Below the pieces are notes generated by a model. That model was not told the DNA's origin, searched no databases, and was given only the letters and a program-made list of their open reading frames with translations. Made by a program: the position numbers and the translations under genes. From Deltaproteobacteria bacterium (GTDB taxonomy: Bacteria; DRYD01), in assembly GCA_028276365.1 (NCBI GenBank), contig JAPYWL010000005.1, positions 1 through 56,927 on the forward strand: a stretch of DNA of 56,927 nucleotides. The letters are read 5' to 3'. Numbering within the stretch: position 1 is the stretch's first letter; each line of letters opens with the position of its first letter. Shown here one piece after another: positions 11,586 through 44,910 of the stretch.

Positions 11586-11760
11586 CCTGAAATTAAAGTA
11601 AATTATAAAATTATTGTTTACATGTATAGTGTTTTTTTAGATTATTTGTTAAAACAGGAATAAATTAATTCTATTCTGAAAACCTATCAATTTTTCTTTA
11701 GTAATTACAAAGCCAGAAAAACTACCCTATTTCACATTAACAGTTTTTTTTTACTATGAA

Positions 11761-11848
11761 GGATTTTTTTATTTTTTTTACCTAATTATTATATTGGAGT
11801 AAATATACATCCTTCCTTAGTTTAGCTTACACATAGGGGAATTGAAAG
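11761..11848 (+). repeat. Leader-like T-rich block (11761-11807) plus a solitary 29-nt CRISPR-type repeat GTTTAGCTTACACATAGGGGAATTGAAAG (11820-11848)
   Basis: Near-identical copy on the minus strand at 19902-19819. Similarity ends exactly after ATTGAAAG. The repeat length and 3' ATTGAAAG are typical of Cas6-type repeats. No second repeat follows downstream. Confidence 0.65.
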
Positions 11849-11869
11849 TTTTAAAATCTTAAAACTTTC
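11844..11869. other. Perfect 11-bp hairpin (GAAAGTTTTAA-AATC-TTAAAACTTTC) spanning the repeat 3' end and the stop and last codons of 11851..13416
   Basis: Base pairing checked position by position (11844-11854 with 11869-11859). The plus strand follows with CCGTTTCTATTT. Confidence 0.5.
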
Positions 11870-13416
11870 CCGTTTCTATTTAGAATCTGATTATCTTTTA
11901 GAGTTAATTTTCCATTAACAAAAACGTATTTAATTCCATCAGGGTATTTATGAGGATCTAAGTAAGTTGAATTATCTTTTAATTCATTTAAATCAAAGAT
12001 AACAATATCAGCAAAATAATTTTTTTCAATACTTCCTCTTTTATAGATATTAAATTTTTTAGCAGGGAATTCAGATAACTTATATATAGCTTCCTTTAGA
12101 GATAAAACTTGCTTTTGTTTAACGTATTTATTTATAAATTTAACAAAGGTTCCATAAGTTCTAGGGTGAGGCCAAGACAAAGAATTAGGACATCTTATTG
12201 CACTATCACTAGCAACCATTACATAAGGCTTAGTCGCTATATAATCCACTTCTTCTTCATCCATTAAGAAATAAATAGCTCCTAAATCATAACCCTCTGT
12301 TTTTAATAGATAAATAACAGTTTTAGCAGGGGTTAATCCTAAATCCTTAGAAATTTGATCTATAGTTAATCCAACATATTTTAATAATTTAGGGTTATAA
12401 GCTTCAGATATAATAATTTTATCCCAAGGGGTGTGATAATTATTTTCTATATCTATTTCTACTTGTTCCTCATTTTCAGAAATATTAGCTATAATATCTT
12501 CAATAGATCCTTCTAAGTATTTATCAGGTAATACTTGAGATAATCCAGTATTAGAAGCTTCATAGGGATATTGATCAGCATCAATATTAATCCCTTCTTT
12601 TTTAGCATTTTCAATTAAATAACAAGCATCCCTTGCTTTACCTTTTGCTGAAGAAGCTGCTTTTAAATGAGAAATCTCAAAATTAACACCGCTCTCTCTT
12701 GAAATAGTTATGCTCTCTTGAATAGCTTCAAGTAATTTAGAGCTTTCAGAACGCATATGATTAGTTAAAATTTTACCCTTAGATTTAACTACTTTTGCTA
12801 ATTCTATTAACTCTTTAGTATCAGAAAATTTTCCAGGTATATAAATTAATCCTAAAGATAATCCAATAGCACCATCATCTAATACTTTTGATAACTCATT
12901 TTTAAAAAGCTCAATATCATTTTCACTAAGTTTAATATTATTATACCCAAATAATCCTCCTCTAATTTGTCCATGTCCCGCTAAATATCCATAATTAATA
13001 GCTATATCTAAAGATTCAATATAATCTAAATATTCCTTTAAAGATCCCCATTTTAATTCATTGATATTGTAGCTTTGTGCTTCAGTTTTTATTGAATTTA
13101 AAGTATTAGGATATAAAGGACTCACAGCGAACCCACAATTACCCGAAATAATAGTAGTAACCCCTTGATACAAAGCACTACAAGCATCAGGATTAGCTAT
13201 TATAGTTAAATCACTATGACTATGGACATCTATAAACCCAGGTGATACATATAAATTATTAGCATCTATAACTTCAAAGCCATTTACTCTTAAATTATCT
13301 ATATCTTCTTGATTTAGATTATCATAATTTATTTCAGCTATAACCTCATTATCTATAAATATATTTCCCTTTTTCTCCTTTTGAATTATATAACCATTTA
13401 TTATAGCATATTTCAT
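11851..13416 (-). CDS. N-acyl-D-amino-acid deacylase (D-aminoacylase), amidohydrolase superfamily
   Basis: Metal-binding motif PGFIDVHSHSD near the N-terminus. Length and C-terminal beta-sandwich-like end match the D-aminoacylase family. Confidence 0.8.
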   Translation of the reverse strand: MKYAIINGYIIQKEKKGNIFIDNEVIAEINYDNLNQEDIDNLRVNGFEVIDANNLYVSPGFIDVHSHSDLTIIANPDACSALYQGVTTIISGNCGFAVSPLYPNTLNSIKTEAQSYNINELKWGSLKEYLDYIESLDIAINYGYLAGHGQIRGGLFGYNNIKLSENDIELFKNELSKVLDDGAIGLSLGLIYIPGKFSDTKELIELAKVVKSKGKILTNHMRSESSKLLEAIQESITISRESGVNFEISHLKAASSAKGKARDACYLIENAKKEGINIDADQYPYEASNTGLSQVLPDKYLEGSIEDIIANISENEEQVEIDIENNYHTPWDKIIISEAYNPKLLKYVGLTIDQISKDLGLTPAKTVIYLLKTEGYDLGAIYFLMDEEEVDYIATKPYVMVASDSAIRCPNSLSWPHPRTYGTFVKFINKYVKQKQVLSLKEAIYKLSEFPAKKFNIYKRGSIEKNYFADIVIFDLNELKDNSTYLDPHKYPDGIKYVFVNGKLTLKDNQILNRNGKVLRF

Positions 13417-13728: not shown

Positions 13729-13967
13729 TACTTAAAATTTTAATATCTAAAAATAAAAAATCTTCCTATTTATTTATTATTTATTATTTTTATAAATTCC
13801 TTTTAAGCTCTAAGATTTACTCTTAAAAATACACTCTTATATGCTTTTATGAAATTTGCTAAGGTAATATTTAACATTTATTTTATTACAGAACTGAATA
13901 GCTGTCAAGTTTCTTTTTTTAATTTATTTTCACCTTCTAAAAAATTGAAATTTCTTACAACCCTTTG

Positions 13968-15602
13968 TTAAACTAATAATCTTTTAAGGATTTTACCTGC
14001 CTGATTCTTAGGTAAATTATCTACAAATTGGATTTCTCTAGGTATTTTATATTGAGATAATTTATTTTTACATTCTCTTATTATATCGTTTTCAGTTAAA
14101 CTGGGATCGTTTTTAACAATAAAAGCCTTAACTATTTGTCCTTTAGAAGGATGATTAACCCCAACTACTGCAGCTTCTACAACTCCTTTAATAGAATATA
14201 ACACTTCTTCTACTTCCTTAGGAAATACTTTAAAACCACTTATTATTATCATTTCTTTTTTTCTATCTACTATTTTAAAATATCCATCTTGATCCATTTT
14301 AACGATATCTCCTGTATAAAGGTAACCATTTTTTATTGAGTTATTAGTTTCTTTTTGATTTTTATAATATCCTAACATTATTTGGGGACCTTTTATAATC
14401 AGCTCCCCTTCTTCATTTATTGACAATTCTTTACCAGATTCTATATCAATTACTTTAGCATCGGTATCGGGAATAGGTAATCCTATAGTACCTATTCTAT
14501 TTTCTCCATCAAAAATTGGGTTAATATGGGTTACAGGAGAAGCTTCTGAAAGCCCATACCCTTCTACTAATTTAGCATTAGTTAATTCAGTAAATCTTTT
14601 ATAGATTTCATAATTTAATGGAGCAGCACCTGAAATACACACCTTTATACTACTTATATCTACCTTTGATTTCTTAGCATATAAACTTATTGAATTATAT
14701 ATAGCAGGTACAGCAGGAAAAAAATCTATTTTATATTTACTTATCAACCTAAGCATTTGCTCTATAGAAAATTGAGGTAAAAGAACCATTGAATTAGCTA
14801 ATCTTACACTAACATTCATCCCAACTGTCATACCATAAGCATGAAATAAAGGTATTACATTTAAAGTTTTATGATTATTTTCAGGTTTAAACTCAAATAC
14901 CCAAGAAACTATTTGCTTAGAATTAGCTACTAAATTAAAGTGAGATAACATAGCAGCTTTTATTACTCCCGTTGTACCACCAGTATATTGTAAAACCGCT
15001 AACTTCTTTTTAACATTCATATTCTCATTTATATTCTTTATTTCTTTTTCAGCAATACTATATTTTATTAACTCAGATAATAAAACTATTTTATCTTGTA
15101 TTATTTTATTATCGATATTAAAATTTGGTTTAAAATATATATCATCAACAATGATTTTTTCAATATTATCAAGTATTTCAGGGATCTCAAAGAGTTTATT
15201 TAGAATCAAAGGAAAGGTTATAATATATTTACTATCAGAATCAAGGATATATTTTTTTATTTCAAATGCTGTTAGCTCAGGATTAATATTAACTACTACT
15301 GCTTTAGTAGCTAAAACTGAATAATACATAAAGATATAGCTAGGGACATTAGGTAAAAGAAAAGAGAATTTATCATCAATATTTACTCCTATATTAATTA
15401 AAGCTGATGCTATTTTTAAAACTATTTCATATAATTCTTTATATTTCAATATCTGATTAAATTCATCATATATTATAGCAATATTTTCAGGATAATTTAA
15501 AGCAGTTTTTTTAAGTAGCTCAAATAAGCTTATCTCTTCGTAATCAAGATGATATGGAACTTCTTTAGGATAACTTTTATACCATACTTTTTCCATAAAC
15601 AA
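13968..15602 (-). CDS. fadD: Long-chain-fatty-acid--CoA ligase (AMP-binding enzyme)
   Basis: AMP-binding signature LQYTGGTTGVIKAAMLSH, plus YGLSEASP, GDIV..D.DGYF.IVDRKKEMII, and a C-terminal GKILKR. Confidence 0.9.
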   Translation of the reverse strand: MFMEKVWYKSYPKEVPYHLDYEEISLFELLKKTALNYPENIAIIYDEFNQILKYKELYEIVLKIASALINIGVNIDDKFSFLLPNVPSYIFMYYSVLATKAVVVNINPELTAFEIKKYILDSDSKYIITFPLILNKLFEIPEILDNIEKIIVDDIYFKPNFNIDNKIIQDKIVLLSELIKYSIAEKEIKNINENMNVKKKLAVLQYTGGTTGVIKAAMLSHFNLVANSKQIVSWVFEFKPENNHKTLNVIPLFHAYGMTVGMNVSVRLANSMVLLPQFSIEQMLRLISKYKIDFFPAVPAIYNSISLYAKKSKVDISSIKVCISGAAPLNYEIYKRFTELTNAKLVEGYGLSEASPVTHINPIFDGENRIGTIGLPIPDTDAKVIDIESGKELSINEEGELIIKGPQIMLGYYKNQKETNNSIKNGYLYTGDIVKMDQDGYFKIVDRKKEMIIISGFKVFPKEVEEVLYSIKGVVEAAVVGVNHPSKGQIVKAFIVKNDPSLTENDIIRECKNKLSQYKIPREIQFVDNLPKNQAGKILKRLLV

Positions 15603-15795
15603 ATTTCCTCCACATTAATTACTTATATTATTTATTATCCTTTTTATATTCTATTCCTAATTTTTCAGATCCTTTTTTAGCAATTAAATCAATTTTGAAA
15701 CTAAAAAATAGTTTTTTAGAGGTAGAGATTTGAAATATGTAGAATAATATATCAAAATACCAATAATTTATTAAATAAAAAAAGGGGGATAATCA

Positions 15796-16158
15796 ATGAT
15801 AAAAAAAATTAGTAGAAATACATTAAGAAAAATTAGACATAAGAGAATAAGAAAGAAAATAAAGGGTACACCTGAAAGACCAAGGTGTAGCATATTTAAA
15901 AGCAATAAACACATTTACTTACAAGTAATAGATGACACGAAGGGAATTACATTAACTTACGCTAATTCCTTAGAAAAAGATATAAGAGAAAAAAAATTAA
16001 AATTTAAGCAATTAGTAGAGGAAGTAGTCAATAGATTAGTTTCAAGATGTAAAGATAAAAATATAAAAAAATTAGTATTTGATAGAAGTGGATATAAATA
16101 TCATGGGAATGTTAAAAAAGTAGCAGATATTTTAAGAAAAAATGGATTAGAACTATAA
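15796..16158 (+). CDS. rplR: 50S ribosomal protein L18
   Basis: RHKRIRKKIKGTPERPRCSIFKSNKHIYLQVIDD and FDRSGYKYHG. Strong SD AAAGGGGG. Confidence 0.95.
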   Translation: MIKKISRNTLRKIRHKRIRKKIKGTPERPRCSIFKSNKHIYLQVIDDTKGITLTYANSLEKDIREKKLKFKQLVEEVVNRLVSRCKDKNIKKLVFDRSGYKYHGNVKKVADILRKNGLEL

Positions 16159-16212
16159 AAAAAATTATAAAAAAGATAAATTAAATAAAATAAAAGGGGG
16201 TTAAAAAAAGGA

Positions 16213-16962
16213 ATGACTTTATTAGAAAAAGGTGGATATGACAGTATATTAGTTTCTTTAAGAAGAGTAACAAGAGTAATGAAAGGTGGTAAAAGGTTTA
16301 GGTTTAGTGCATTAGTAGTAGTAGGAGACGGTAATGGTAGAGTAGGAGCTGCATTAGCTAAGGCACCTGAAGCTATGTTAGCTATTAGAAAAGCAGAAGA
16401 AAAAGCTAAAAAAAATATGTTTAATGTCCCAATTGTTAATGAAACAATACCTCATGAAACAATTGGAATAAATACAACTTCAAAAGTATTATTAAAACCA
16501 GCAGGTTCAGGGACAGGTATAATAGCTTCTATGCCAGTTAGAAGTGTCTTAGAAAAAGCAGGGTATAAAAATATCTTAACCAAATCCTTAGGTAGTAATA
16601 ATCATATAAATTTAGTATGGGCTACTTTGGATGCTCTTAAAAAACTTAAAACCAAAGAACAACAATTAGAAATCTTACAATCCCAAGAATCAAAAGATCA
16701 ATTTGAAAAATATTTAAAAACTACTGAAATCAAAGAACAACCTAAAGAAAATAAAGTAAAAAATCAGCAAATAAATACAGAAATTCAAAAAAATTCTGAA
16801 AATAAATTAAAATATGAACAACAACAAAAAAATTATGATAAATCAAGTTTTAAACAAAAAGATAATTTCAAAAGGCCTCCCAATAAACCAAATTATAAAA
16901 AATTTAATAAAACCTATAAAGAATCTACATCAGAAAATCATGAGAATAAAAATCAAGAATAA
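16213..16962 (+). CDS. rpsE: 30S ribosomal protein S5 with a ~100-aa Lys/Gln/Asn/Glu-rich C-terminal extension
   Basis: Core [29 protein letters not shown]...[10 protein letters not shown]. The tail begins at about nt 16663. Confidence 0.95.
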
Positions 16963-17020
16963 AAAATTAAATTTAATAAAAAATTAAATTTAAATTCTTT
17001 TATAAAGAGGTGTATTATTT

Positions 17021-17533
17021 ATGTATTTACAGGAATTAAAACCATATCCAAATAGTAAGAAAAAAAGGAAGAGAATAGGAAGAGGTTTAGGTAGTGGTCA
17101 TGGAGTAACTGCTACAAGAGGTACTAAAGGGCAAAAAGCAAGAAGTGGAGGAGCTAAGTCCCCATTTTTTGAAGGTGGTCAAAATCCATTATATCTTAGA
17201 GTCCCTTCTAAAGGTTTTACTAATATCTTTAAAAAAGAATATCATATCGTAAAACTTGAAGACTTAAATATATTTGATAATCATACAGTTGTTACACCTG
17301 ATTTACTAAATAAAGTAGGATTAATAAAATATAAAGATAAATTAGATAAAGAAATAAAGATTTTAGGTAATGGAGAACTTAATAAAACCTTAGAAATTCA
17401 CGCTCATAAAATAACCAAAAAAGCATTAAAAAAATTAGAAAAAACTAATTCTAAATTTTTAAAACTTCCACCTCTTAAAAATAAATTCAAAAAAACTAAA
17501 AAAACTCAAAAAATACAAAAAACTGCTACCTAA
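17021..17533 (+). CDS. rplO: 50S ribosomal protein L15 (Lys-rich tail)
   Basis: LKPYPNSKKKRKRIGRGLGSGHGVTATRGTKGQKARSG. Confidence 0.95.
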   Translation: MYLQELKPYPNSKKKRKRIGRGLGSGHGVTATRGTKGQKARSGGAKSPFFEGGQNPLYLRVPSKGFTNIFKKEYHIVKLEDLNIFDNHTVVTPDLLNKVGLIKYKDKLDKEIKILGNGELNKTLEIHAHKITKKALKKLEKTNSKFLKLPPLKNKFKKTKKTQKIQKTAT

Positions 17534-17606
17534 AAAATAAAAAATAGTAAATTAAAATAAAAATACTGTAATTAAAAAATATTATAATTAAAAATAGTTA
17601 AAATTA

Positions 17607-18533
17607 GTGCTAAAAATAGAAGAAAGCTATATTTTGTTATTTAAACGAGATTTAAATTTATCGAGTTTAACTACCTATAAAATAGGTGGAAAAAGTTTAG
17701 GGGTATTTATTTTTAATAATTCCTTTGATTTAATAAGATCCTTAGTATATTTTTCAAAAAGAGGAATCCCTTATAAAATAATTGGGAAAGGAAGTAATTT
17801 ATTAGTTACCGATGAAGAGTTAATAGAAAAAGTTTTTATAATAAATAAAGAGAGATATTTTTTTAATTATGAAAATAAAGTATTAGTTAATTCAGGGTTA
17901 GAATTACAGTATTTTATAAAAAAATTAATAGAATTAAATTTTGATTCATATCAAGAGTTAGCGGGCATCCCAGCAAGTGTAGGTGGGAGTGTATTCAATA
18001 ACGCTGGAATCCCTTCTATAGAAATATCTCAATATATTACTAAAATTTACTCTTTTAACAGAAAAAAAAGAAAAATTGAAGTAATAGAAATTAATAACAA
18101 AAACAAATCTAATTTTTTTAGTTATAGAAATTCATTTTTTAAAGAAGAAGCATTTAATAATAATTTTTATGATATACTGTATATAGAGTTTGAATTTAAT
18201 AATAAGAAACCCAAAGAAGAATTATTAAGGATTTATAATAAAACGTGGGAAAAGAGGATATTAACTCAGCCTTTAAATGTTCCGTCTTGTGGAAGTGTAT
18301 TTAAAAATGTTTTGTTAAATAATAATATTTTAAGGGCTTGGGAGATAATTGATAAATTGGGTTTTAGAGGATATACTTTTAATGGTGCTAAAGTCTCAGA
18401 AAAACATCCCAATTTTATCGTTAATTTTAATAATGCTAAATTTAAAGACGTTTATAGTATCATCCAAAAAATTAAAAATACCGCTAAATTAAATAACTAT
18501 AACTTAGATTTAGAAGTAGAAATAATAAAATAA
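17607..18533 (+). CDS. murB: UDP-N-acetylenolpyruvoylglucosamine reductase
   Basis: LTTYKIGG, IGKGSNLLV, PSCGSVFKN and VSEKHPNFIVN motifs. GTG start. Confidence 0.9.
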   Translation: MLKIEESYILLFKRDLNLSSLTTYKIGGKSLGVFIFNNSFDLIRSLVYFSKRGIPYKIIGKGSNLLVTDEELIEKVFIINKERYFFNYENKVLVNSGLELQYFIKKLIELNFDSYQELAGIPASVGGSVFNNAGIPSIEISQYITKIYSFNRKKRKIEVIEINNKNKSNFFSYRNSFFKEEAFNNNFYDILYIEFEFNNKKPKEELLRIYNKTWEKRILTQPLNVPSCGSVFKNVLLNNNILRAWEIIDKLGFRGYTFNGAKVSEKHPNFIVNFNNAKFKDVYSIIQKIKNTAKLNNYNLDLEVEIIK

Positions 18534-18566
18534 AATAAAGAATCTAAAACTAAAGGGAGGTTGAAA

Positions 18567-19802
18567 ATGAATAACTTATTAAGTGAATTAGATCTAAAAT
18601 TAAAATTCTACTCACTAAATGATTTAGTTTATGTAATACCAGATAATTCAATACCTACTACTTATTTAAGTATTTACTTTTTAAGTGGAAGTTACTTAGA
18701 AAGTCTTGGTAAATTGGGATTAAATTATTTAGTGTTTAAGACTTTAATTAGATCTACTAAAAAATTCAAATATGAAGATTTAAATTACTATTTAGAAAAA
18801 TATTCTATAAGTGTAAGTAGTTTTGCAGGATATTTTAATAGTGGAATTTCATTATCTTTTCCGTTTTATAATTATAAAGAAGCTTTATATGCTCTAAATT
18901 CTATAATATACGATTATATTTTTAGAAATTCCGATTTAGAAGAGGTAAAAAGAGATTCAATTAATAGTATAAAAATTTTAAAAGATGACATATATTCATA
19001 TTTAACTGCTTATGCAGATAAAGCTTTCTATAGTTCATTTTTAGCTAACGATGTTAAAGGAAATATAAAGAATATAAAAAAATTTACAAGAAAAGACTTA
19101 ATTAATTGGTATGAGAATTTAATTAATTCAAAAGATATAAAAAAAATAATAATAATTTCAGGATATACTACTCCTAGTTTTGAGCAACAAGTATTTAGAA
19201 ATTTTAAAAAGATTTTAAATAAAGATAACAATTATATTAGTAAAATGAGTGATTTTGATATAGTTCCTAAGAGAATAACTCATAGATTAAATAAAGTAGA
19301 AACAGGAATAGCTATAATTTATCCTGCTCCTACTTATAATTTAGATTTCTTTAGCTATAAAGTTATTTCATCTATATTAGGTTCTATGTCAGGTAGATTA
19401 TTTGTAAATATAAGAGAAAAACAAGAATTAGCTTATGCTATTAGCTCATATTATGAACCTCTACCTATAAAAGCTGGTAGCATTAAATTCACAATGCTAA
19501 CCTCAAAAGAAAATAAAAATAAAGCCTTAAATGCCTTATTAAATGAAGTTAATGATATAATAAAAAACGGTTTTAAAGAAGATGAAATAATTACCGCTAA
19601 AAATTATATTATAGGTAATTACATTGATAGCTTTATAAAACGATCATTTAAAGCTTCTTTATTAGCTAAATCTATTTTATTCAATATACCTTTAGAATTT
19701 ACAAATAACTACATAAATTATATAAACTCAGTTAGTAAAGATACTATAAATAGTAAATTAGATTATTTTAAAAATAAACCAGGTATTTTTATCGTCTTTT
19801 AA
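18567..19802 (+). CDS. M16 (insulinase/pitrilysin) family protein, probably non-catalytic
   Basis: The fold-level pattern of M16 is present, but the HxxEH zinc motif is replaced (GLNYLVFKTL). I prefer the ATG at 18567, which has GGGAGG 6 nt upstream, over the TTG at 18561. Confidence 0.65.
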   Translation: MNNLLSELDLKLKFYSLNDLVYVIPDNSIPTTYLSIYFLSGSYLESLGKLGLNYLVFKTLIRSTKKFKYEDLNYYLEKYSISVSSFAGYFNSGISLSFPFYNYKEALYALNSIIYDYIFRNSDLEEVKRDSINSIKILKDDIYSYLTAYADKAFYSSFLANDVKGNIKNIKKFTRKDLINWYENLINSKDIKKIIIISGYTTPSFEQQVFRNFKKILNKDNNYISKMSDFDIVPKRITHRLNKVETGIAIIYPAPTYNLDFFSYKVISSILGSMSGRLFVNIREKQELAYAISSYYEPLPIKAGSIKFTMLTSKENKNKALNALLNEVNDIIKNGFKEDEIITAKNYIIGNYIDSFIKRSFKASLLAKSILFNIPLEFTNNYINYINSVSKDTINSKLDYFKNKPGIFIVF

Positions 19803-19818
19803 TTCCCCTACTTTCTTT

Positions 19819-19902
19819 CTTTCAATTCCTCTATAGGTAAGCTAAATAGTTATGCTATATATTTACTTCAATATAACAATTAGGTAAAAAAATAAAAAAT
19901 CC
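19819..19902 (-). repeat. Second copy of the leader-like block plus a solitary CRISPR-type repeat ATTTAGCTTACCTATAGAGGAATTGAAAG (19847-19819, minus strand)
   Basis: The reverse complement aligns with 11761-11848. Block 1 has 2 substitutions and two 1-nt T-run indels. The repeat has 3-4 substitutions. An 11-13 nt variable linker separates them. The repeat ends 16 nt from the stop of 18567..19802. Confidence 0.65.
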
Positions 19903-19937
19903 TTTATATAAATTTTTAATAAAAAAAACCACTTGAT

Positions 19938-20728
19938 GTGAAAGCTTTAATTCAAATTAAAATGAATGATTTTTATAATTTTTATAGTTTTAAAATTTAT
20001 TCAAGTAATATATACGATTTAAACCAAAAGGAAATAATAAATAGAATTAAATTAGTTAAAAGCAAATTTAACAAACTAAACGTAATATTACCAATTCAAA
20101 AACATACCAATAAAATACTAAAATTATCTCAATTATTAAAAATTCGAAATTTAGATGAAGGTTTTGATGGGATATATTTTGATAATAAAGATATTTATTT
20201 ATTAAAGCATTTTGCTTTAGGGGTTTTAACTGCAGACTGCTTGCCTATTGTTATATTAATCTTTAAAGAATCTTTACGAAATATGAACAATTTAGCTAAC
20301 TTAGAAAATTCATCATTGGTAGCATATTACATGCAGGTTGGAAAGGAATCTTTAATAATATAATTTACAATTTCTTTAATATAGTAAATAATTATTTGAA
20401 AAATGAAAGTAATATTAAAGTAATTGCGTATATAGGTCCTTGTATAAGAGATTGTTGTTATGAAGTTAAAGAAGATTTTATTAAAAAACTAAATATTAAC
20501 TCTAATTTTTACTATTTTAAAGATAAAAAAATATATTTAAATTTACCATTTATTGTTAAATATCAAATAAAGCAGTATTTTTTAAACCTTAAAAATACAA
20601 TAAAATTGGAAAATACAATAGAATTGGATTTAATAGATGTTAATAAATGTACATACTGTAGTAATAATTATTTTTCATATAGAAAAGGTAATAAAGAAGA
20701 AAGAAATATAACCATTTTATCAATTTAA
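19938..20728 (+). pseudogene. pgeF: Peptidoglycan editing factor PgeF / YfiH (DUF152) interrupted by a frameshift
   Basis: Frame 1 (19938-20363) carries QKHTNKI...GVLTADCLPIV. The conserved HAGWKG and IGPCIRDCCYEV motifs lie in another frame that is open from 20300 and continues into the 20396..20728 ORF. The junction is near the A4 run at 20305-20308. Confidence 0.75.
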
Positions 20729-20806
20729 TTTTATTCTATTTTAATTTGTTATATTATAAAGGATAGCAGATTAAAATATATAACAAAATAATTATAGAGT
20801 ATAGGT

Positions 20807-22624
20807 ATGTATGTAGTAGTAGGTTCAAAAGGAAGTATTTTGACTTCAATAGATGGTAAAAATTGGAGCTTTCAAAACACAAATTTAAATTTAACTGATA
20901 TATATTTTAAAAATGACACTTTAATAGCAGTTAGTCAAAATTCAAAAATATTAGTATCAAATGATACAATAAATTGGGAATTAAAAGAGCTGGGATATAA
21001 TTACTGGCTAAAATCTATAGCAGCAAGTGAGGATTTATGGGTAATTGTTGGATGGGAAGGTATTATATTAACTTCTAAAGACTTTAATTTATGGGAAAAA
21101 CAAAAATCTAATACATCATCTATTCTAACATCTGTTACTTTTGGAAATAATTTATTCATCGCAGTAGGATATAATGGGAAAATTTTAATTTCAAATGATG
21201 GAATAAATTGGAATATACTAAATTTATCGTCTAATTTATCATTTGAAAACATAAGTTATGTCAATAATAAATTTGTAGCCTTAGGAAAAGATGGTAAAAT
21301 CTTAGTTTCAGAAAACGGCATCAATTGGTTTTTAAAAAATTCTAAAACTACTTCTTCTTTAAATGGTTGCGCTTATAAAAAAGATGAATTCAATAAAGAT
21401 ATATATATCATAGTAGGTAAAAATGGAAAAATTTTAATATCTTACGACTTAGAAAATTTTGAAGATATTGAATTAAATTTTAAACAAGATATTTTTAAAA
21501 TAATATATGAAAATAATTTATTTGTAGCAACTTGTGCTAAAGGAAACATATTAATTTCTAAGGATGGAATAAATTGGGACATAATACAAACTAATATTAA
21601 TGAAGATTTAACATCTATTACATACGCTAACTTTAAAGATCACCCTATTTTAAAAACAACTAAAAATAAAAAAGATAAGAAAAACATAAGTACTATAGGA
21701 ATACATTCTGAAAAAAAACAAAAAACAAACTTAGAGAAATGGATTCTAAACAAAACACCCTCTAAAAATGATTTACTTGATATAACCTTTAAAAGTGACA
21801 CTTTTATATCGCTAGGTAAAAATGGAGATATTTTAATATCTCATCCTTTAAAAGAATTGGAAAATAATAAAAAAAATGATGAATACTTGATTCCTTGGGA
21901 ACTAATTAATTTAAATATTAGGAATCATTTAAGGAGTATTGCTTTTAATGAAAATAATATAGTAATTGTGGGAGATAATGGTATAATTTTAAAAAATAAT
22001 ATTTCTTCTAGTATTGATATTTTTGATCCTTTAAAATGGGAAAAATTAGTTATTAATAATATTTCTTTTAGTTCAGTAGCATTTGGCAATGATATATGGG
22101 TAGCTGTTGGATTAAATGGGAAAATATTAATTTCACAAGACCTAAATAATTGGGAAATTTTTGCTCATGATTTTGTAGCACATTTTACAAGTATTATCCC
22201 ATTTAACGACTATTTTGTAATTACTGGATTAGTTGGAACTATTTTAATATTAGACCAAGATATAGGGTTATATAAATCTAATACAGATACTCAAAGTAAT
22301 ATATATAGTTTAGCTTGCTCTAAGGATTTAGTAATAGCAGTAGGAGCTAACGGAACTATTTTAAAAAGTTATGATTTAAAAAAATGGTATAATATAAAAT
22401 CTCCCGTTAATGAAGATCTATTAAAAGTAGTATTCTTTAAGGATATATTTATAGCAGTAGGAGAAAAAGGGAGCTTAATAATTTCAGAAGACGGGAATAG
22501 TTGGTATAAAAAAAGTACTCCTACTAATAAAACATTATACTCTATTGCCTTAGGGACATTTGATTTTGGAGATTTAGCTATAGCAGTATCTGAAAAAGGA
22601 ACTATAATTCATAACAAAATATAA
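20807..22624 (+). CDS. Beta-propeller repeat protein (Ycf48/BNR-like SxDGxNW repeats, two propeller-sized halves)
   Basis: More than 12 repeats of the pattern [IV]AVG.[NK]G.IL.S.DG.NW. Confidence 0.6.
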   Translation: MYVVVGSKGSILTSIDGKNWSFQNTNLNLTDIYFKNDTLIAVSQNSKILVSNDTINWELKELGYNYWLKSIAASEDLWVIVGWEGIILTSKDFNLWEKQKSNTSSILTSVTFGNNLFIAVGYNGKILISNDGINWNILNLSSNLSFENISYVNNKFVALGKDGKILVSENGINWFLKNSKTTSSLNGCAYKKDEFNKDIYIIVGKNGKILISYDLENFEDIELNFKQDIFKIIYENNLFVATCAKGNILISKDGINWDIIQTNINEDLTSITYANFKDHPILKTTKNKKDKKNISTIGIHSEKKQKTNLEKWILNKTPSKNDLLDITFKSDTFISLGKNGDILISHPLKELENNKKNDEYLIPWELINLNIRNHLRSIAFNENNIVIVGDNGIILKNNISSSIDIFDPLKWEKLVINNISFSSVAFGNDIWVAVGLNGKILISQDLNNWEIFAHDFVAHFTSIIPFNDYFVITGLVGTILILDQDIGLYKSNTDTQSNIYSLACSKDLVIAVGANGTILKSYDLKKWYNIKSPVNEDLLKVVFFKDIFIAVGEKGSLIISEDGNSWYKKSTPTNKTLYSIALGTFDFGDLAIAVSEKGTIIHNKI

Positions 22625-33523: not shown

Positions 33524-33971
33524 TTTATTACTACCCTATATATAATTATAATTTTTTTTTTCAAAAAAACAAGCGTTTTAAATAGCTTTTATTGTAAAAT
33601 TTTTGTAAATTTTATTAACATAAATTTAAAATCTTACTTTTATATTAAAAACCCTAAAAAGAGTTTATTTTTTTTAGTTAATTTTTAAATTACAGCAAAT
33701 ATAATATACTAGTTTAACAAAAAGCCGCAAAAAGTATCGATTTTCTATAAAGTGGAGATGAATTGCTAAAAACTTAATAGATATTTGGAACAGAATAAAT
33801 ACTATAGAGCATAGAGAATTAGATAGTAATAAGCAGTCTGTTGTTTTATCACCTTTATTAAACTATAGGAATAGAAAATAAAAGAAAGGATTTCAATAGG
33901 ATTTTGACTTGTATTGTGTATGGGAGAGTTTATAAAAGGGATGAAAATATAAACTTATACTAAGTAAGGTT

Positions 33972-34086
33972 GGGTACGCTTTAAAACTAAGCCTTTAAAG
34001 CATGGTCTGATGGCTGGACCGTATTCCTTATACCTAAAAAGCTAAACTTATGTAAAGCTCACTTATCCCCTTAGGAGAATTAAAAG
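33972..34086 (-). repeat. Dispersed intergenic element, copy 2 (partner 6591..6682). On the plus strand it includes a degenerate CRISPR-repeat-like segment (34052-34086)
   Basis: See 6591..6682. The plus-strand sequence GTAAAGCTCACTTA[TCCCCT]TAGGAGAATTAAAAG matches the 11820-11848 repeat at about 22/29 positions if a 6-nt insertion is allowed. Confidence 0.5.
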
Positions 34087-34132
34087 CTAAAAATATAAAT
34101 TGAAATATAAAGATTAAGAAAAACAATAAAAA

Positions 34133-41820: not shown

Positions 41821-44800
41821 CTATTTTAATCTTTCATTAATAGTATTTAACTTTGCTTTAACAATACCTATCATTAATCCCTCCTTCCCATAAATTACAA
41901 CCACATTATCCTTAAAAACCCAACTAAAAATAATCCCCTTTCCTAATTCTTCATAATAATTATTTATATCCTTCATAAAACTAAATAACTCAGATATATA
42001 TTTTAAATTCAATTCTTTAAATATACTATTACTAACAAAATAGCTACCCATATTATTTTCTTTAATAATAGATATTCCATCAATCTTAGGATTATTTATA
42101 ATATCAAAAATTTCTTTTGAAATATTACTTAAATTTTCATCTACATTAAATTTTATTAACTCATTTTGTTCAGAAACTAATTCCCCCTGTTTAATACTTT
42201 TATTTAACTCACTCTTTTCTAATTCTTGTATATCGGTAACTGCAGCTTCCTGTGTTAAATTTTCTTCTATTAAGAATTCCTGAACCCAATTCATCTCACT
42301 TATTTCTTTAAATTCATTAGTTTCAATTTTTAATTCTTCTGCCTTTATTTCCTTTTGATCCTTATTATCCAAACTATCTAAATTTATGTCATCCAAATTA
42401 ATACTATCTAAATTTATATCATCTAAATTTATATCATCTAAATTAATATTATCTAAATTTATACTATCTAAATTAATATTATCCAAATTTATATTATCTA
42501 AATCTAAAGAACTAATATCAAGATTAAGATTTATATCAACATCAACTTTTTGAACTTCCTCAAAAATTAATTCATCCCTTATTTTTAAAACTTCTTTATC
42601 CTTTTCACTTTCTAATCTCTCTTTCTCAAATAAATCATCTTCTTTATAATCTAACTTTACTTCCTCTGATTTAATCTCTTTTTCTTCTTTCTTAAATAAA
42701 CCACTATCACTACTACTAATATTTAATTCATTAATATTTAATTCTATTTGTTTATCTACATTTTCTAAACTTTCTAAATTATTTAAACTATCTTTCAATT
42801 CTATTTCTTTATCATTTAAATATTTTGAATCATTAATTTCTACTAATTGTAATTCATTTTGTAATTGATTTTCTAAATCACTACTTAAAAAAGTATCTAA
42901 TTTTTTTTGTGATTCTTGTTTAATGCTTTCTTCTAATAAATCCTTATTCAAATTCTCAAAAACTTCATTACTTTCTTTTGAATCCTTAACCACTTCTTCT
43001 TTATTTACAATTTCAGTGTTATTAATTAGATCTTCTAATTCTAAATTTACCTCAATATTCTCAATAGCTTTTAAATTGTCCAAAGGAGATAAGTTATCTA
43101 TAGAAGATAAATTATCTAAAGAAGATAAGTTATCCAAAATAGGTAAATTATCTAAAGAAGGAAAACTATTTAACAATTCTAAATCTTCTTTCTTTTCTGC
43201 TAAATCTCTATTTTCAAATATATTTTCTAAATTACTACTAATAAAACTCCTATCTTCTAAATTTTCTACTAATTGTCCTTGAGTAATAAAATCTTTTTCT
43301 AAATCAATCTCTCTTTGAAAATCGGTATTACCTAAATTTTCTTGAATTTCATTTTCTTTTAAAGCACCTATTTCATTATCTAAAATACTTTTATTTTCTA
43401 ATAATTCCTTATTATCAATATCATAAGAGCTATCAAAAATAGATACTTTATTAAAATCATTTAATTCTTTCATCTCTAATTCCCTAGTTTCTAGTTCTTT
43501 TAATAAATCAATTTCTTTAAAAGAATCAGCCTCAATAATAACTTCCTGCTTGATATCAAAATTTTTAGTAATATTAATGCCAAGATCTATATTATCTACT
43601 TTTTGAACTATATCAGATTCCTTTTCTAATTCATTAATTAGACTAAAATCTATATCTATCGGAAGTTTTACCCCAAGACGTTCCTCTTTTGTCTTAGTTT
43701 GTTCCTCTTTTACTTCAATTGCTTCTTCTTTTGTTTCTATTTGTTCCTCTTTTACTTCAATTGCTTCTTCTTTTATTTCTATTTGCTCCTCTTTTACTTC
43801 TATTGGTTCTTCTTTTATTTCTATTTGTTCCTCTTTTACTTCAATTGCTTCTTCTTTTGTTTCTATTTGTTCCTCTTTTACTTCAATTGCTTCTTCTTTT
43901 ATTTCTATTTGTTCCTCTTTTACTTCAATTGCTTCTTCTTTTATTTCTATTTGTTCCTCTTTTATTTCAATTTGTTCTTCTTTTGCTTCAATTTGTTCCT
44001 CTTTTATTTCAATTTGTTCTTCTTTTGCTTCAATTTGTTCCTCTTTTATTTCAATTTGTTCCTCTTTTACTTCTATTGGTTCTTCTTTTGTTTCTATTTG
44101 TTCCTCTTTTACCTCTATTGGTTCTTCTTTTGCTTGTACTTGTTCTTCTTTTATTTCTTTTGGCAATACTTCTGCAATTTGGATCTCAGATATTTCTTGC
44201 TTTACTTCAGTATAAATCTTAGTTAATAAATCTTTCACTTTTTCAATAAAAACATTGAAATTAAGCAATTCATCATAAATAAAATTAATAAGAATATAAT
44301 TATTAAAGACATCCAGATTATTATTATTAAAAACCAGTTGTTTAAAATGAGAATCTAAAGAAGCAAAAATTTTCTCATATATTCTTTTTACTTTATTAAT
44401 TTTTTTAGGATCCTCAATATAGTATTTTTTCTCTTTAAAATGATTAATTATATCCTTAGGATTATCCAAAACAAGCTCAATTTGATTTTTCTTCTTATCA
44501 TCTTCAAAAGGGATTAATTCATTAACATTAGATAATAACCTTTCTTTCAGTTCATTTTTAGTTTTAACCAATTGCTCTATATCTTTATTTATATTTTCTA
44601 AAATATAATTTATATCCTGAAGATCTATTAGCTTCAATAAATTAAGTTCTTGTTCATTTAAATTATAAAAAAACGATTCTTTATTTAGATTATATTTTTT
44701 ATAAAGTTCTAAAAGATTTTTAAATTTAGATAAATTATTACTAAATAATTCCAACTGATTTTCATTAAATATAGCATAAGATACATCATTAATAAAACTA

Positions 44801-44910
44801 ATAAATTCGTAGTCAATAAGAGAATTAAATAGAAAAGGGAAAGAAAATAAATTAGGTAGCTCCAAAATTTTTTGATTATAAAAAATTTCATTATCAATAG
44901 TAATATTCAC
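41821..44910 (-). CDS. 1029-aa highly acidic tandem-repeat protein with a possible Roadblock/LC7-like C-terminal domain
   Basis: Uninterrupted ORF containing three internal repeat arrays. The C-terminal ~100 aa (IDGISIIKENNMGSYFVSN...GKGIIFSWVFKDNVVVIYGKEGLMIGIV) resembles the Roadblock/LC7 fold pattern. This is an inference. Confidence 0.6.
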   Translation of the reverse strand: MNITIDNEIFYNQKILELPNLFSFPFLFNSLIDYEFISFINDVSYAIFNENQLELFSNNLSKFKNLLELYKKYNLNKESFFYNLNEQELNLLKLIDLQDINYILENINKDIEQLVKTKNELKERLLSNVNELIPFEDDKKKNQIELVLDNPKDIINHFKEKKYYIEDPKKINKVKRIYEKIFASLDSHFKQLVFNNNNLDVFNNYILINFIYDELLNFNVFIEKVKDLLTKIYTEVKQEISEIQIAEVLPKEIKEEQVQAKEEPIEVKEEQIETKEEPIEVKEEQIEIKEEQIEAKEEQIEIKEEQIEAKEEQIEIKEEQIEIKEEAIEVKEEQIEIKEEAIEVKEEQIETKEEAIEVKEEQIEIKEEPIEVKEEQIEIKEEAIEVKEEQIETKEEAIEVKEEQTKTKEERLGVKLPIDIDFSLINELEKESDIVQKVDNIDLGINITKNFDIKQEVIIEADSFKEIDLLKELETRELEMKELNDFNKVSIFDSSYDIDNKELLENKSILDNEIGALKENEIQENLGNTDFQREIDLEKDFITQGQLVENLEDRSFISSNLENIFENRDLAEKKEDLELLNSFPSLDNLPILDNLSSLDNLSSIDNLSPLDNLKAIENIEVNLELEDLINNTEIVNKEEVVKDSKESNEVFENLNKDLLEESIKQESQKKLDTFLSSDLENQLQNELQLVEINDSKYLNDKEIELKDSLNNLESLENVDKQIELNINELNISSSDSGLFKKEEKEIKSEEVKLDYKEDDLFEKERLESEKDKEVLKIRDELIFEEVQKVDVDINLNLDISSLDLDNINLDNINLDSINLDNINLDDINLDDINLDSINLDDINLDSLDNKDQKEIKAEELKIETNEFKEISEMNWVQEFLIEENLTQEAAVTDIQELEKSELNKSIKQGELVSEQNELIKFNVDENLSNISKEIFDIINNPKIDGISIIKENNMGSYFVSNSIFKELNLKYISELFSFMKDINNYYEELGKGIIFSWVFKDNVVVIYGKEGLMIGIVKAKLNTINERLK
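42365..42505 (-). repeat. 15-nt (5-aa INLD[DNS]) tandem repeat, about 9 units, inside 41821..44910
   Basis: Visible in the DNA (ATCTAAATTTATATC-type units) and in the protein (NINLDNINLDSINLDNINLDDINLDD...). Confidence 0.85.
43075..43175 (-). repeat. 18-nt (6-aa LDNLxx) tandem repeat, about 5-6 units, inside 41821..44910
   Basis: Protein SLDNLPILDNLSSLDNLSSIDNLSPLDNL. DNA GATAAGTTATCTATAGAA-type units. Confidence 0.8.
43690..44155 (-). repeat. 21-nt (7-aa KEE[QPA]IE[IVTA]) tandem repeat, about 22 units, inside 41821..44910
   Basis: Protein KEEQIEIKEEAIEVKEEQIET.... The DNA shows a 21/42-nt periodicity. This array generates the spurious poly-Leu/Phe ORFs on the opposite strand. Confidence 0.9.

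Follow-up and report, generated by a model that had tools for sequence, protein, structure and literature searches.

The stretch of DNA that was analysed (56,927 nucleotides, hereafter the window) comes from a very AT-rich lineage; its G+C content is about 24%, and the nearest named relatives of its proteins are found in Candidatus Calescibacterium MAGs, at 49–57% identity. In surroundings made up of ribosomal-protein, murB, M16 and pgeF genes, the gap between an M16-like peptidase gene and pgeF holds a short module (copy 2) that has a counterpart (copy 1) elsewhere in the window. The features of the two sites are as follows.

18567..19802, plus strand: M16-like peptidase gene (Pfam Peptidase_M16_C, homologs and alignment of the junction)
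19796..19818, minus strand: degenerate tandem copies of the 3′ part of the repeat, AAAGAAAG and TAGGGGAATTAAAAG
19819..19847, minus strand: solo CRISPR repeat of copy 2, ATTTAGCTTACCTATAGAGGAATTGAAAG, with three substitutions relative to the family consensus GTTTAGCTTACCCATAGGGGAATTGAAAG
19848..19944, minus strand: proximal leader segment of copy 2, 97 nt (alignment with 30 leaders; nhmmer)
19944..19819, minus strand: copy 2 cassette as a whole, a 97-nt CRISPR leader segment and one 29-nt repeat with no spacer
19945..19961, plus strand: 17-nt remnant between the 5′ edge of copy 2 and the pgeF ATG
19962..20728, plus strand: pgeF pseudogene (Cu-oxidase_4 family), downstream of the copy 2 module and on the strand opposite to it
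11714..11848, plus strand: copy 1 cassette, subtype A, with a 106-nt proximal leader that starts with CAGAAAAACTACC and is followed by the repeat GTTTAGCTTACACATAGGGGAATTGAAAG

Read on the minus strand, copy 2 consists of TTTCACATCAAGTGG, a run of eight T, ATTAAAAATTTATAT (a stretch that is characteristic of subtype B, see below), AAGGA-T6-A-T7, ACCTAATTGTTATATTGAAGTAAATATA, TAGCATAACT and the 29-mer ATTTAGCTTACCTATAGAGGAATTGAAAG; the letters from 19902 to 19819 are those given in the preliminary description of this DNA. Block 1 of the module, GGATTTTTTATTTTTTTACCTAATTGTTATATTGAAGTAAATATA, contains the nearly invariant TTATATTG with a −10-like TATATT and is separated from the repeat by the linker TAGCATAACT, which is indeed present but measures 10 nt and not the 11–12 nt reported at first. 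Likewise, the weak similarity to copy 1 that had been noticed upstream of block 1 is there but reaches farther than was thought, to 19944, and takes in TTTCACATCAAGTGG and the T8 run. The leader is truncated at its 5′ end in comparison with the full short module, which starts with CAGAAAAATTAGCC. The nhmmer family profile matches the entire module at 19944–19819 (E = 2.9e-28).

The repeat ends at 19819, 16 nt from the TAA of the M16-like gene (19800–19802), the distance originally given. Beyond this point the two copies were said to diverge, which is true of the downstream flanks, as these are unrelated, but the partial repeats at 19818..19796, which are derived from the module and include the M16 stop, had been overlooked. 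Of these fragments, TAGGGGAATTAAAAG spans 19810..19796 and sets the outer edge at 19796; the last codon (TTT) and the stop (TAA) of the M16-like gene are provided by the reverse complement of the degenerate repeat fragments, and the C-terminus of the protein has been changed by the insertion from ...IVD (stop) in relatives to ...IVF (stop) in the window. On the other side of the module, the 17-nt remnant reads TTTAATTTGAATTAAAG on the module strand, and its end, GAATTAAAG, resembles both the 3′ end of the repeat and the module's own 3′ terminus. The start of pgeF is most likely the ATG at 19962, judging from homology with two related loci (L044 and L056), and not the GTG at 19938. Two ORF pieces of this gene match PF02578, and the frameshifted state ascribed to it is borne out by the alignment with the intact L044 ortholog, relative to which pgeF is broken by deletions of 4 nt and 36 nt. 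The sigma-70 and terminator consensus scan found no site inside the copy 2 module (on either strand for terminators); a plus-strand promoter-like site at 19951–19979 lies outside the module and overlaps the start of pgeF.

Copy 1 ends 2 nt from the stop of a convergent amidohydrolase gene (11851..13416, minus strand). Both copies sit between two genes of the opposite strand, and at about 16 kb, in the interval that separates them, gene direction and GC skew reverse along with their orientation. A degenerate 27-nt repeat pattern occurs at exactly two sites in the window, 11822–11848 (plus strand) and 19819–19845 (minus strand), and is absent from all 100 dinucleotide-preserving shuffles; the family profile returns the same two sites (E = 3e-30 and 3e-28). 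In a pairwise alignment the two copies match from about 135 nt upstream of the 29-mer through its last base and are unrelated beyond it. Searches of the whole window with TRF revealed no tandem array, Rfam at the gathering threshold reported only tRNA, with a single sub-threshold CRISPR-DR2 match near the copy 2 repeat (19.2 bits, E = 0.53), and PADLOC detected no cas gene among the 47 ORFs. An exact look-up of the window's M16 protein returned no record. A third, marginal leader-like stretch was picked up by the family profile at 33641–33715.

Scanning metagenome contigs for the 3′ 24 nt of the repeat, we identified 43 loci (designated here by L numbers), among which there are arrays of 46, 19, 15, 11 and fewer repeats, down to 3. 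The repeat unit of these related arrays is GTTTAGCTTACCCATAGGGGAATTGAAAG, 29 nt long, and their spacers measure 36–38 nt. The copy 2 repeat agrees with the array consensus at 26 of 29 positions, and its ortholog in L044 does so at all 29. A conserved leader of at least 220 nt precedes the arrays L013, L017, L021, L022, L030, L039 and L048, which are all the arrays with spacers for which 220 nt or more of upstream flank can be read, and positions 19848–19944 of copy 2 align with the proximal part of this leader, which holds block 1, the T-runs, AAGGATTTT and the linker. The proposal that leader and solo repeat form a recurring unit is thereby upheld, as the same leader and repeat are found in true arrays and at about 20 solo loci. 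The 3′ end of the repeat is ATTGAAAG, which we take to be the 8-nt crRNA tag of Cas6-processed type I-B or type III repeats; an 8-nt 5′ tag left by Cas6 is typical of repeats of both types.

Genes for CRISPR-associated proteins are encoded on the related contigs. Bulk ORF scans with PADLOC over these contigs yielded matches to Cas6/Cas6b, Cas10/Cmr2, Cmr1, Cmr3, a Csm3-like protein, Csx1 (CARF-HEPN) and Cas1b, of which only Cmr3 and Cmr1 were placed, next to an array in L032. On the related contigs, housekeeping genes surround the majority of the arrays and every solo repeat, and no cas gene was detected among the ORFs examined beside particular arrays and solo repeats, L032 excepted. A collection of genomes of species representatives, which does not include the window organism, contained no match to the leader core, and the loose repeat pattern gave 11 chance single matches and one unrelated true array in this collection, that of Marinicrinis sediminis, which shares the 3′ 20 nt of the repeat. 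Viral contigs had no match to the repeat pattern and 12 matches to the leader core, all of them without leader context.

A CRISPR array has at least two repeats with unique spacers, and copy 2 has one full repeat only. Its repeat is near-identical to that of the bona fide arrays of the lineage, and the AT-rich leader that adjoins it is common to other arrays. Judged by its letters, then, copy 2 is a real CRISPR leader fragment with one genuine repeat and zero spacers.

Comparison with related contigs was informative for both sites of the window. L044 is syntenic with positions 15766–21579 at 94% identity and carries the module in the same place, with a perfect consensus repeat. In L056 and L057, whose M16 proteins are 84% identical to that of the window, the M16 gene ends in ...GTA GAT TAA, just 15 nt separate it from the pgeF ATG, and the module is missing, as it also is from L058 and L055 (M16 80–81% identical), where the gap between M16 and pgeF measures 59 and 119 nt, respectively. 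The nucleotide homology to the relatives with an empty site ends exactly at 19795 and restarts near 19977. These comparisons show copy 2 to be a recent insertion, made in an ancestor shared by the window strain and the relatives with M16 at least 96% identical; it landed in the former 15-nt gap of the M16–pgeF pair, antisense to both genes. A 9-nt similarity between its 5′ flank (GAATTAAAG) and its 3′ end (AATTAAAAG) could stem either from duplication of a short segment or from microhomology with the end of the repeat itself.

Copy 1 is missing from L062, which is 97.3% identical to the window at the nucleotide level across the amidohydrolase gene, as well as from two 84% relatives, L061 and L059. 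Homology to L062 starts at 11849, the first base after the copy 1 repeat, and in L062 the amidohydrolase stop is followed by a shorter spacer and then by the same acyltransferase gene. The segment gained is 11714–11848, from CAGAAAAACTACC to GAATTGAAAG, 135 nt; no target duplication was found at its junctions, where an A/T run is merely shortened from 8 to 4. The same kind of alignment shows copy 1 to be an independent insertion that is even younger than copy 2. Contigs of close strains stop inside the module, as would be expected if it is a repeated element.

About 20 distinct loci with a single repeat, found by a near-perfect repeat pattern and with orthologous loci merged by eye, lie among housekeeping genes, as do the two copies of the window. 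The full short unit is about 135 nt long, starts with CAGAAAAATTAGCC, finishes with the final base of the repeat and comprises about 106 nt of proximal leader plus the repeat. Two forms of the leader can be distinguished: long-leader loci retain a distal segment of about 110 nt at 92–99% identity, whereas short-leader loci consist of the proximal 106 nt or so only, with a common start point at (C)AGAAAAATTAGCCTATTTCACAT. Both window copies have the short form, without the distal leader. Spacers were present at 0 of 15 distinct short-leader loci versus 9 of 12 long-leader loci (Fisher p = 5e-5). Independently of length, subtype A, represented by copy 1, lacks ATTAAAAATTTATAT and has the linker CATCCTCCTTA; copy 2 and the array leaders exemplify subtype B. 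At one locus the subtype differs between strains, B in one and A in the other (L034 versus L049), which indicates sequence exchange between copies.

The placement of the solo loci follows a pattern. The nearest downstream ORF is convergent at about 16 of 18 distinct loci (binomial p = 0.0013), so the antisense geometry that had been pointed out for the 3′ end of the M16-like gene is not only correct but the rule for the family. In most cases this gene has its stop between −27 and +40 nt relative to the end of the repeat, and in several cases 1–4 nt beyond it. The reverse complement of the repeat has stop codons in two of three frames, so that a gene interrupted near its end is closed quickly. 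The bias in orientation and towards stop codons could come from function, rather than from insertion preference or from purifying selection elsewhere, and the orientation bias could follow transcription, replication or selection. Stuttered fragments of the 3′ part of the repeat, like those at 19818..19796, also follow the last repeat at other solo loci and in arrays.

At the copy 2 locus itself, three alleles can be compared. L044 and the window have 89.7% identity in the repeat, 90.6% in the leader and 85% over the intergenic stretch as a whole (indels counted), and 91–96% at the third codon positions of the flanking genes; all three repeat changes, as well as the change in the −10-like element (TATATTGGAG to TATATTGAAG), fall on the window side. 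In the third allele, that of L063 and L064 (M16 96% identical), a single repeat ending in ...GGAATTAAAAG is fused directly to M16 codons, and the leader is cut to about 57 nt, with the pgeF ATG 5 nt away. The M16 stop of L063 lies inside the repeat itself, and there are no extra 15-mers in this strain, as compared with two full extra 15-nt copies of the repeat's 3′ part in L044 and one copy plus a fragment (about 1.5) in the window. The truncation of the leader differs between strains as well. These figures show copy 2 substitutions accumulating at or above the synonymous rate, in what looks like neutral drift. Two of the three repeat substitutions compensate each other (CCC/GGG to CCT/AGG), so that a stem of 3 bp is kept, which could hint at constraint; the predicted fold of the repeat is no more stable than that of shuffled sequence, for which reason we attach little weight to the pair, and copy 1 breaks the stem by a C-to-A change.

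Taken together, we consider copy 2 to be a dispersed zero-spacer leader–repeat cassette that has no visible selected function and persists as a by-product of dispersal, a reading to which we give a probability of roughly 0.6. If the strain retains the Cas6 and type III-B machinery of its relatives, block 1 would serve as the array promoter, with its invariant TATATT behind a T-rich tract (the consensus scan does not call it), and transcription of the minus strand would begin about 25 nt upstream of the repeat. Cas6 would then cut between 19827 and 19826, 8 nt from the repeat end, and the predicted product, beginning with the 8-nt tag ATTGAAAG at 19826, would resemble a crRNA and lie antisense to the 3′ end of the M16 mRNA. 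Such an RNA would be read as 'self', because a target from the same locus pairs with the 8-nt tag too. The alleles of this locus gave no sign that RNA from copy 2 is under selection.

The dispersal process appears to combine precise ends, no clear target duplication and a strong bias in orientation and towards stop codons. Single-strand (HUH-type) transposition would fit, as it is compatible with the absent duplication and the orientation bias; hairpin-ended IS200/IS605 derivatives insert without target duplication. No terminal hairpin pair was identified at the cassette ends. Two other routes were considered and rejected. Off-target spacer integration by Cas1–Cas2 would be expected to leave a repeat-length target duplication on both sides, which is absent, and retro-insertion of a processed leader transcript does not account for a unit in which both the promoter and the entire repeat are present, with the portion past the predicted Cas6 cut as well.

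A stronger form of the mobile reading, in which the short cassette is an actively mobile non-autonomous element that may be mobilised by the adaptation machinery or by an HUH-type transposase and homes antisense to stop-codon regions, with each landing yielding a type III-B guide and a potential array seed, seems to us rather improbable. Slightly less probable still is that the cassette is the relic of a collapsed array, whose former spacers were lost by repeat–repeat recombination. Recombination between repeats and between leader and repeat clearly occurs in this lineage: L015 has lost its proximal leader between two TTAGCTTA motifs, and in L024 and L040 the distal leader is joined directly to the repeat. 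Relics consisting of a leader and one repeat are also known from E. coli strains that have no cas genes. However, the single repeat is shared by all three alleles of the copy 2 locus, and one repeat is found at 15 of 15 short-leader loci, whereas long-leader loci mostly have spacers. Moreover, copy 1 is a clean gain of 135 nt relative to a strain that is 97% identical, and at the copy 2 site an array would first have had to be inserted into the 15-nt gap anyway.

An only marginally weaker candidate is a function of the cassette as an antisense type III guide. From its leader promoter and its one repeat it would produce a crRNA-like RNA consisting of the tag AUUGAAAG and about 37 nt complementary to the final codons of the convergent gene, with which Cmr (type III-B) would cleave or mask the 3′ end of a host mRNA; Cas10 would be left untriggered because read-through mRNA also pairs with the tag. 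The RNA-targeting Cmr genes, Cas6 and Csx1 of the relatives are in line with this proposal, and so is the position of the solo loci, about 16 of 18 of which face a convergent gene whose stop lies within about 40 nt or inside the repeat. The short-leader copies have no spacers, as would be the case for a fixed 'guide', the compensatory pair in the copy 2 repeat preserves its small stem, and the trimming of type III crRNAs at the 3′ end needs no downstream repeat. The target genes, however, are mutually unrelated (M16 peptidase, amidohydrolase and others), and the insertions are young and strain-specific, being absent at 97% nucleotide identity in the case of copy 1 and at 84% amino acid identity in the case of copy 2. 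The divergence of the module at or above the synonymous rate also speaks against a guide. At copy 2, the guide would start with degenerate repeat fragments and its sequence is not conserved, because these fragments differ in number between strains. It had been suggested that the pseudo-spacers be compared with the genome for other matches; in the window and all fetched loci, the 40 nt after each repeat match their own locus only.

Somewhat more doubtful is the possibility that the cassette is a seed array, that is, a minimal adaptation-ready locus whose dispersal multiplies the sites at which Cas1–Cas2 can start arrays. A leader-proximal segment and one repeat make up the minimal integration substrate in several systems, as described for P. 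furiosus Cas1–Cas2 acting on a minimal locus (PMC6698737), and the arrays of the related contigs are many, small and scattered among housekeeping genes. Yet none of the 15 short-leader loci has spacers, these loci lack the distal leader of about 110 nt that is kept (92–99%) by every spacer-bearing array with a readable upstream flank, and the window copies have substitutions in the repeat and the −10 region.

A role as a host regulatory cassette, either as a plus-strand terminator for the M16-like gene or as a promoter or UP element for pgeF, is very unlikely. The module fills the M16–pgeF gap, so that the signals of pgeF must overlap with it, the pgeF ATG of L063 is just 5 nt from the truncated leader, and the plus-strand promoter-like site at 19951–19979 could be added to this list, though it lies outside the module. 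The earlier suggestion that block 1 serves the sense gene as a promoter or UP element nevertheless finds little favour, as the relatives keep the two genes 15 nt apart with no module. Furthermore, a terminator-like site is absent from either strand, the same cassette heads real CRISPR arrays, and pgeF has decayed to a pseudogene in the window. Finally, chance similarity of the two window sites or a local segmental duplication that includes the flanks, which the preliminary description had named as grounds for refutation, would agree with there being only two copies visible in the window itself but can be practically dismissed, given the 0 of 100 shuffles that match, the unrelated flanks, the dozens of copies elsewhere and the independence of the two insertions, each with an empty site in relatives.

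The dispersed cassette can be set against several known systems. With a canonical leader–repeat junction, or minimal CRISPR locus, it shares the repeat, the proximal leader and the ATTGAAAG end, but it differs in having neither a spacer nor a second repeat, in the absence of the distal leader of about 110 nt and in its location inside a pair of housekeeping genes; copy 2 is, in addition, not near cas genes within the 57-kb window, and the short copies apparently never acquire spacers. The leader-plus-single-repeat relics of E. coli are similar to it in their one repeat with a leader, the lack of spacers and the drifting sequence. These relics occupy the ancestral position of an array, whereas the cassettes are at new sites, absent from close relatives, and come in many copies with a defined 5′ end. 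Multi-copy loci composed of a 'long repeat' and short repeats, with spacers behind a leader of about 400 nt, were reportedly described in Methanocaldococcus jannaschii by Bult and colleagues in 1996. Like the cassettes, these loci comprise many conserved leader-like segments with one to many repeats and are scattered around the chromosome of a thermophile, and by analogy they may be regarded as the nearest precedent for the multiplicity of the cassette. We know of no description, for the M. jannaschii loci, of recent insertion at stop codons, of a truncated mobile sub-unit or of antisense bias.

Standalone repeats with the potential to give a crRNA-like RNA acting on the host's own genes are a property that the cassette has in common with CreA of CreTA, the crlRNAs, and the mini-arrays and single repeat units of Shmakov et al. 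2023 (10.1101/2023.03.03.530964; PMC9458426; 10.1101/2024.12.27.630466). They are found within cas loci or next to them and are conserved between relatives; they show partial complementarity to promoters and mostly serve DNA-binding effectors of type I or V. In contrast, the cassettes are far from cas genes, numerous and young, and they are fully complementary to the 3′ ends of genes because they are located there. Copy 2 has neither the cas-locus location nor the conservation of such regulators, being absent from relatives at 80–84% amino acid identity, and no partial complementarity to a separate target was detected in the window and all fetched loci. [quoted passage not shown] (10.1101/2023.03.03.530964), which makes a lineage littered with cassettes unusual. 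The solitary repeat units of phages and other mobile elements, Racrs, resemble the cassette in having a single CRISPR repeat with its own promoter, but they are encoded by viruses and plasmids (PMC10651486), whereas copy 2 is chromosomal, between a peptidase gene and pgeF. MITEs and IS200/IS605 derivatives are alike in size (about 135 nt), multi-copy occurrence, insertion polymorphism between close strains, defined ends, intergenic or gene-end sites and the assembly breaks they cause. The cassette differs from MITEs in its lack of terminal inverted repeats, there being none at its ends beyond CCCTAT/ATAGGG, in the absence of a clear target-site duplication and in its sequence, which is that of a CRISPR leader and repeat.

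The literature that we surveyed contained no description of dispersed leader–repeat cassettes or of a truncated leader–repeat unit as an insertion element, and its treatment of CRISPR in Calescibacteria was limited to passing mentions. Most known standalone CRISPR repeats are either regulators within cas loci or anti-CRISPRs of phages; CRISPR parts scattered in the manner of a small mobile element are unusual. On the practical side, the cassettes break metagenome assemblies and run the risk of being mis-called as tiny CRISPR arrays or missed altogether. If the dispersal is active, it would show how arrays and leaders multiply within genomes that have dozens of small arrays, and it would provide natural cases of self-directed type III guides. 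Should the mobile-element reading be true, the cassettes would allow arrays to spread within a genome and would supply endogenous guides that target RNA.

Relative to the related strain L062 (DNA identity 97.3%), copy 1 of the dispersed module, which consists of the proximal part of a CRISPR leader followed by a single 29-nt repeat with no spacers, represents a clean gain of 135 nt at 11714-11848 on the forward strand. The end of its repeat lies 2 nt away from the stop codon of a convergent amidohydrolase gene. Copy 1 belongs to subtype A, one of the two sequence forms of the module, and block 1 of the subtype A modules is bracketed by a 7-bp inverted repeat, GAAGGAT...ATCCTTC. Two further features lie elsewhere in the window:

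13968..15602, gene for an AMP-binding enzyme
41821-44910, reverse strand, 1029-aa ORF with tandem repeats, especially at 43681-44162 and 42375-42503

The amidohydrolase operon of a relative that is 81% identical adjoins the L18/S5/L15/murB cluster (L059 2441-3001, compared with ~13800-15770 of the window), so the AMP-binding enzyme gene is a lineage-specific difference in gene order. Near 16 kb, both the cumulative GC skew and the gene direction switch. The 1029-aa ORF contains a 42-nt tandem repeat (11.5 copies, 91% matches) as well as blocks of 15-, 18- and 45-nt repeats, and probably encodes a repetitive surface protein or one of low complexity.

Beside copy 2 of the module, pgeF (Cu-oxidase_4 family, 19962-20728, forward strand) is a pseudogene. 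Compared with the intact 272-aa ortholog in the syntenic contig L044, it has lost 36 nt in frame near 20137 and, near 20309, another 4 nt, which causes a frameshift. A segment of 117 nt (19944-20060) is 99% identical to L044, far above the identity of the flanking sequence.

A leader-like sequence also occurs in a region devoid of genes:

33524-34132, forward strand, gene-free stretch of 600 nt

The leader-like segment lies at its start (33660-33720, nhmmer E 0.054) and the stretch terminates in CCCCTTAGGAGAATTAAAAG (34067-34086), which resembles the 3' part of the repeat. The GC-richer region between these ends is conserved with L018:8830-9400 (72%) and includes a ~75-nt motif, GGyTGGG...TTTAAAGCATG...CCTAAAAAGC, that is found in two copies in L018. 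Rfam gave no match at E<=1; the region may specify an unknown structured RNA under a leader-type promoter.

Comparison of L015 (6764-6792) with L037 (501-529) and L041 (3378-3406) revealed a precise deletion of the proximal leader in L015, bounded by two TTAGCTTA motifs, one at the 5' edge of the module and the other at the 5' end of the repeat. The distal leader is fused straight to a repeat in L024 (2115-2209) and L040 (2138-2166), and the arrays of L050/L043 and L031 have no leader at all. The distal part of the long leaders (e.g. L030 11229-11338, L048 423-532) contains the palindrome TTGAC-AAAA-GTCAA. In addition, it carries an inverted repeat of 10 bp, ATCTGTCGAT...ATCGACAGAT, with a T-run after it. 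This second element, located directly upstream of where the short cassettes start, looks like a terminator or attenuator.

Arrays L014 12-239 and L039 2901-3266 share the leader-proximal spacer and differ in the second one, the reverse of the usual polarity, in which spacers are gained at the leader end. Finally, at a single chromosomal site with flanks about 95% identical (L034 8244-8380 and L049 12548-12700), one strain has a module of subtype B and the other a module of subtype A, and L049 has 22 additional nt (AATTTTGTATATTCTTTTTTCA) directly 3' of the repeat. This sequence difference suggests that copies have undergone gene conversion with one another or that the site has been used repeatedly.
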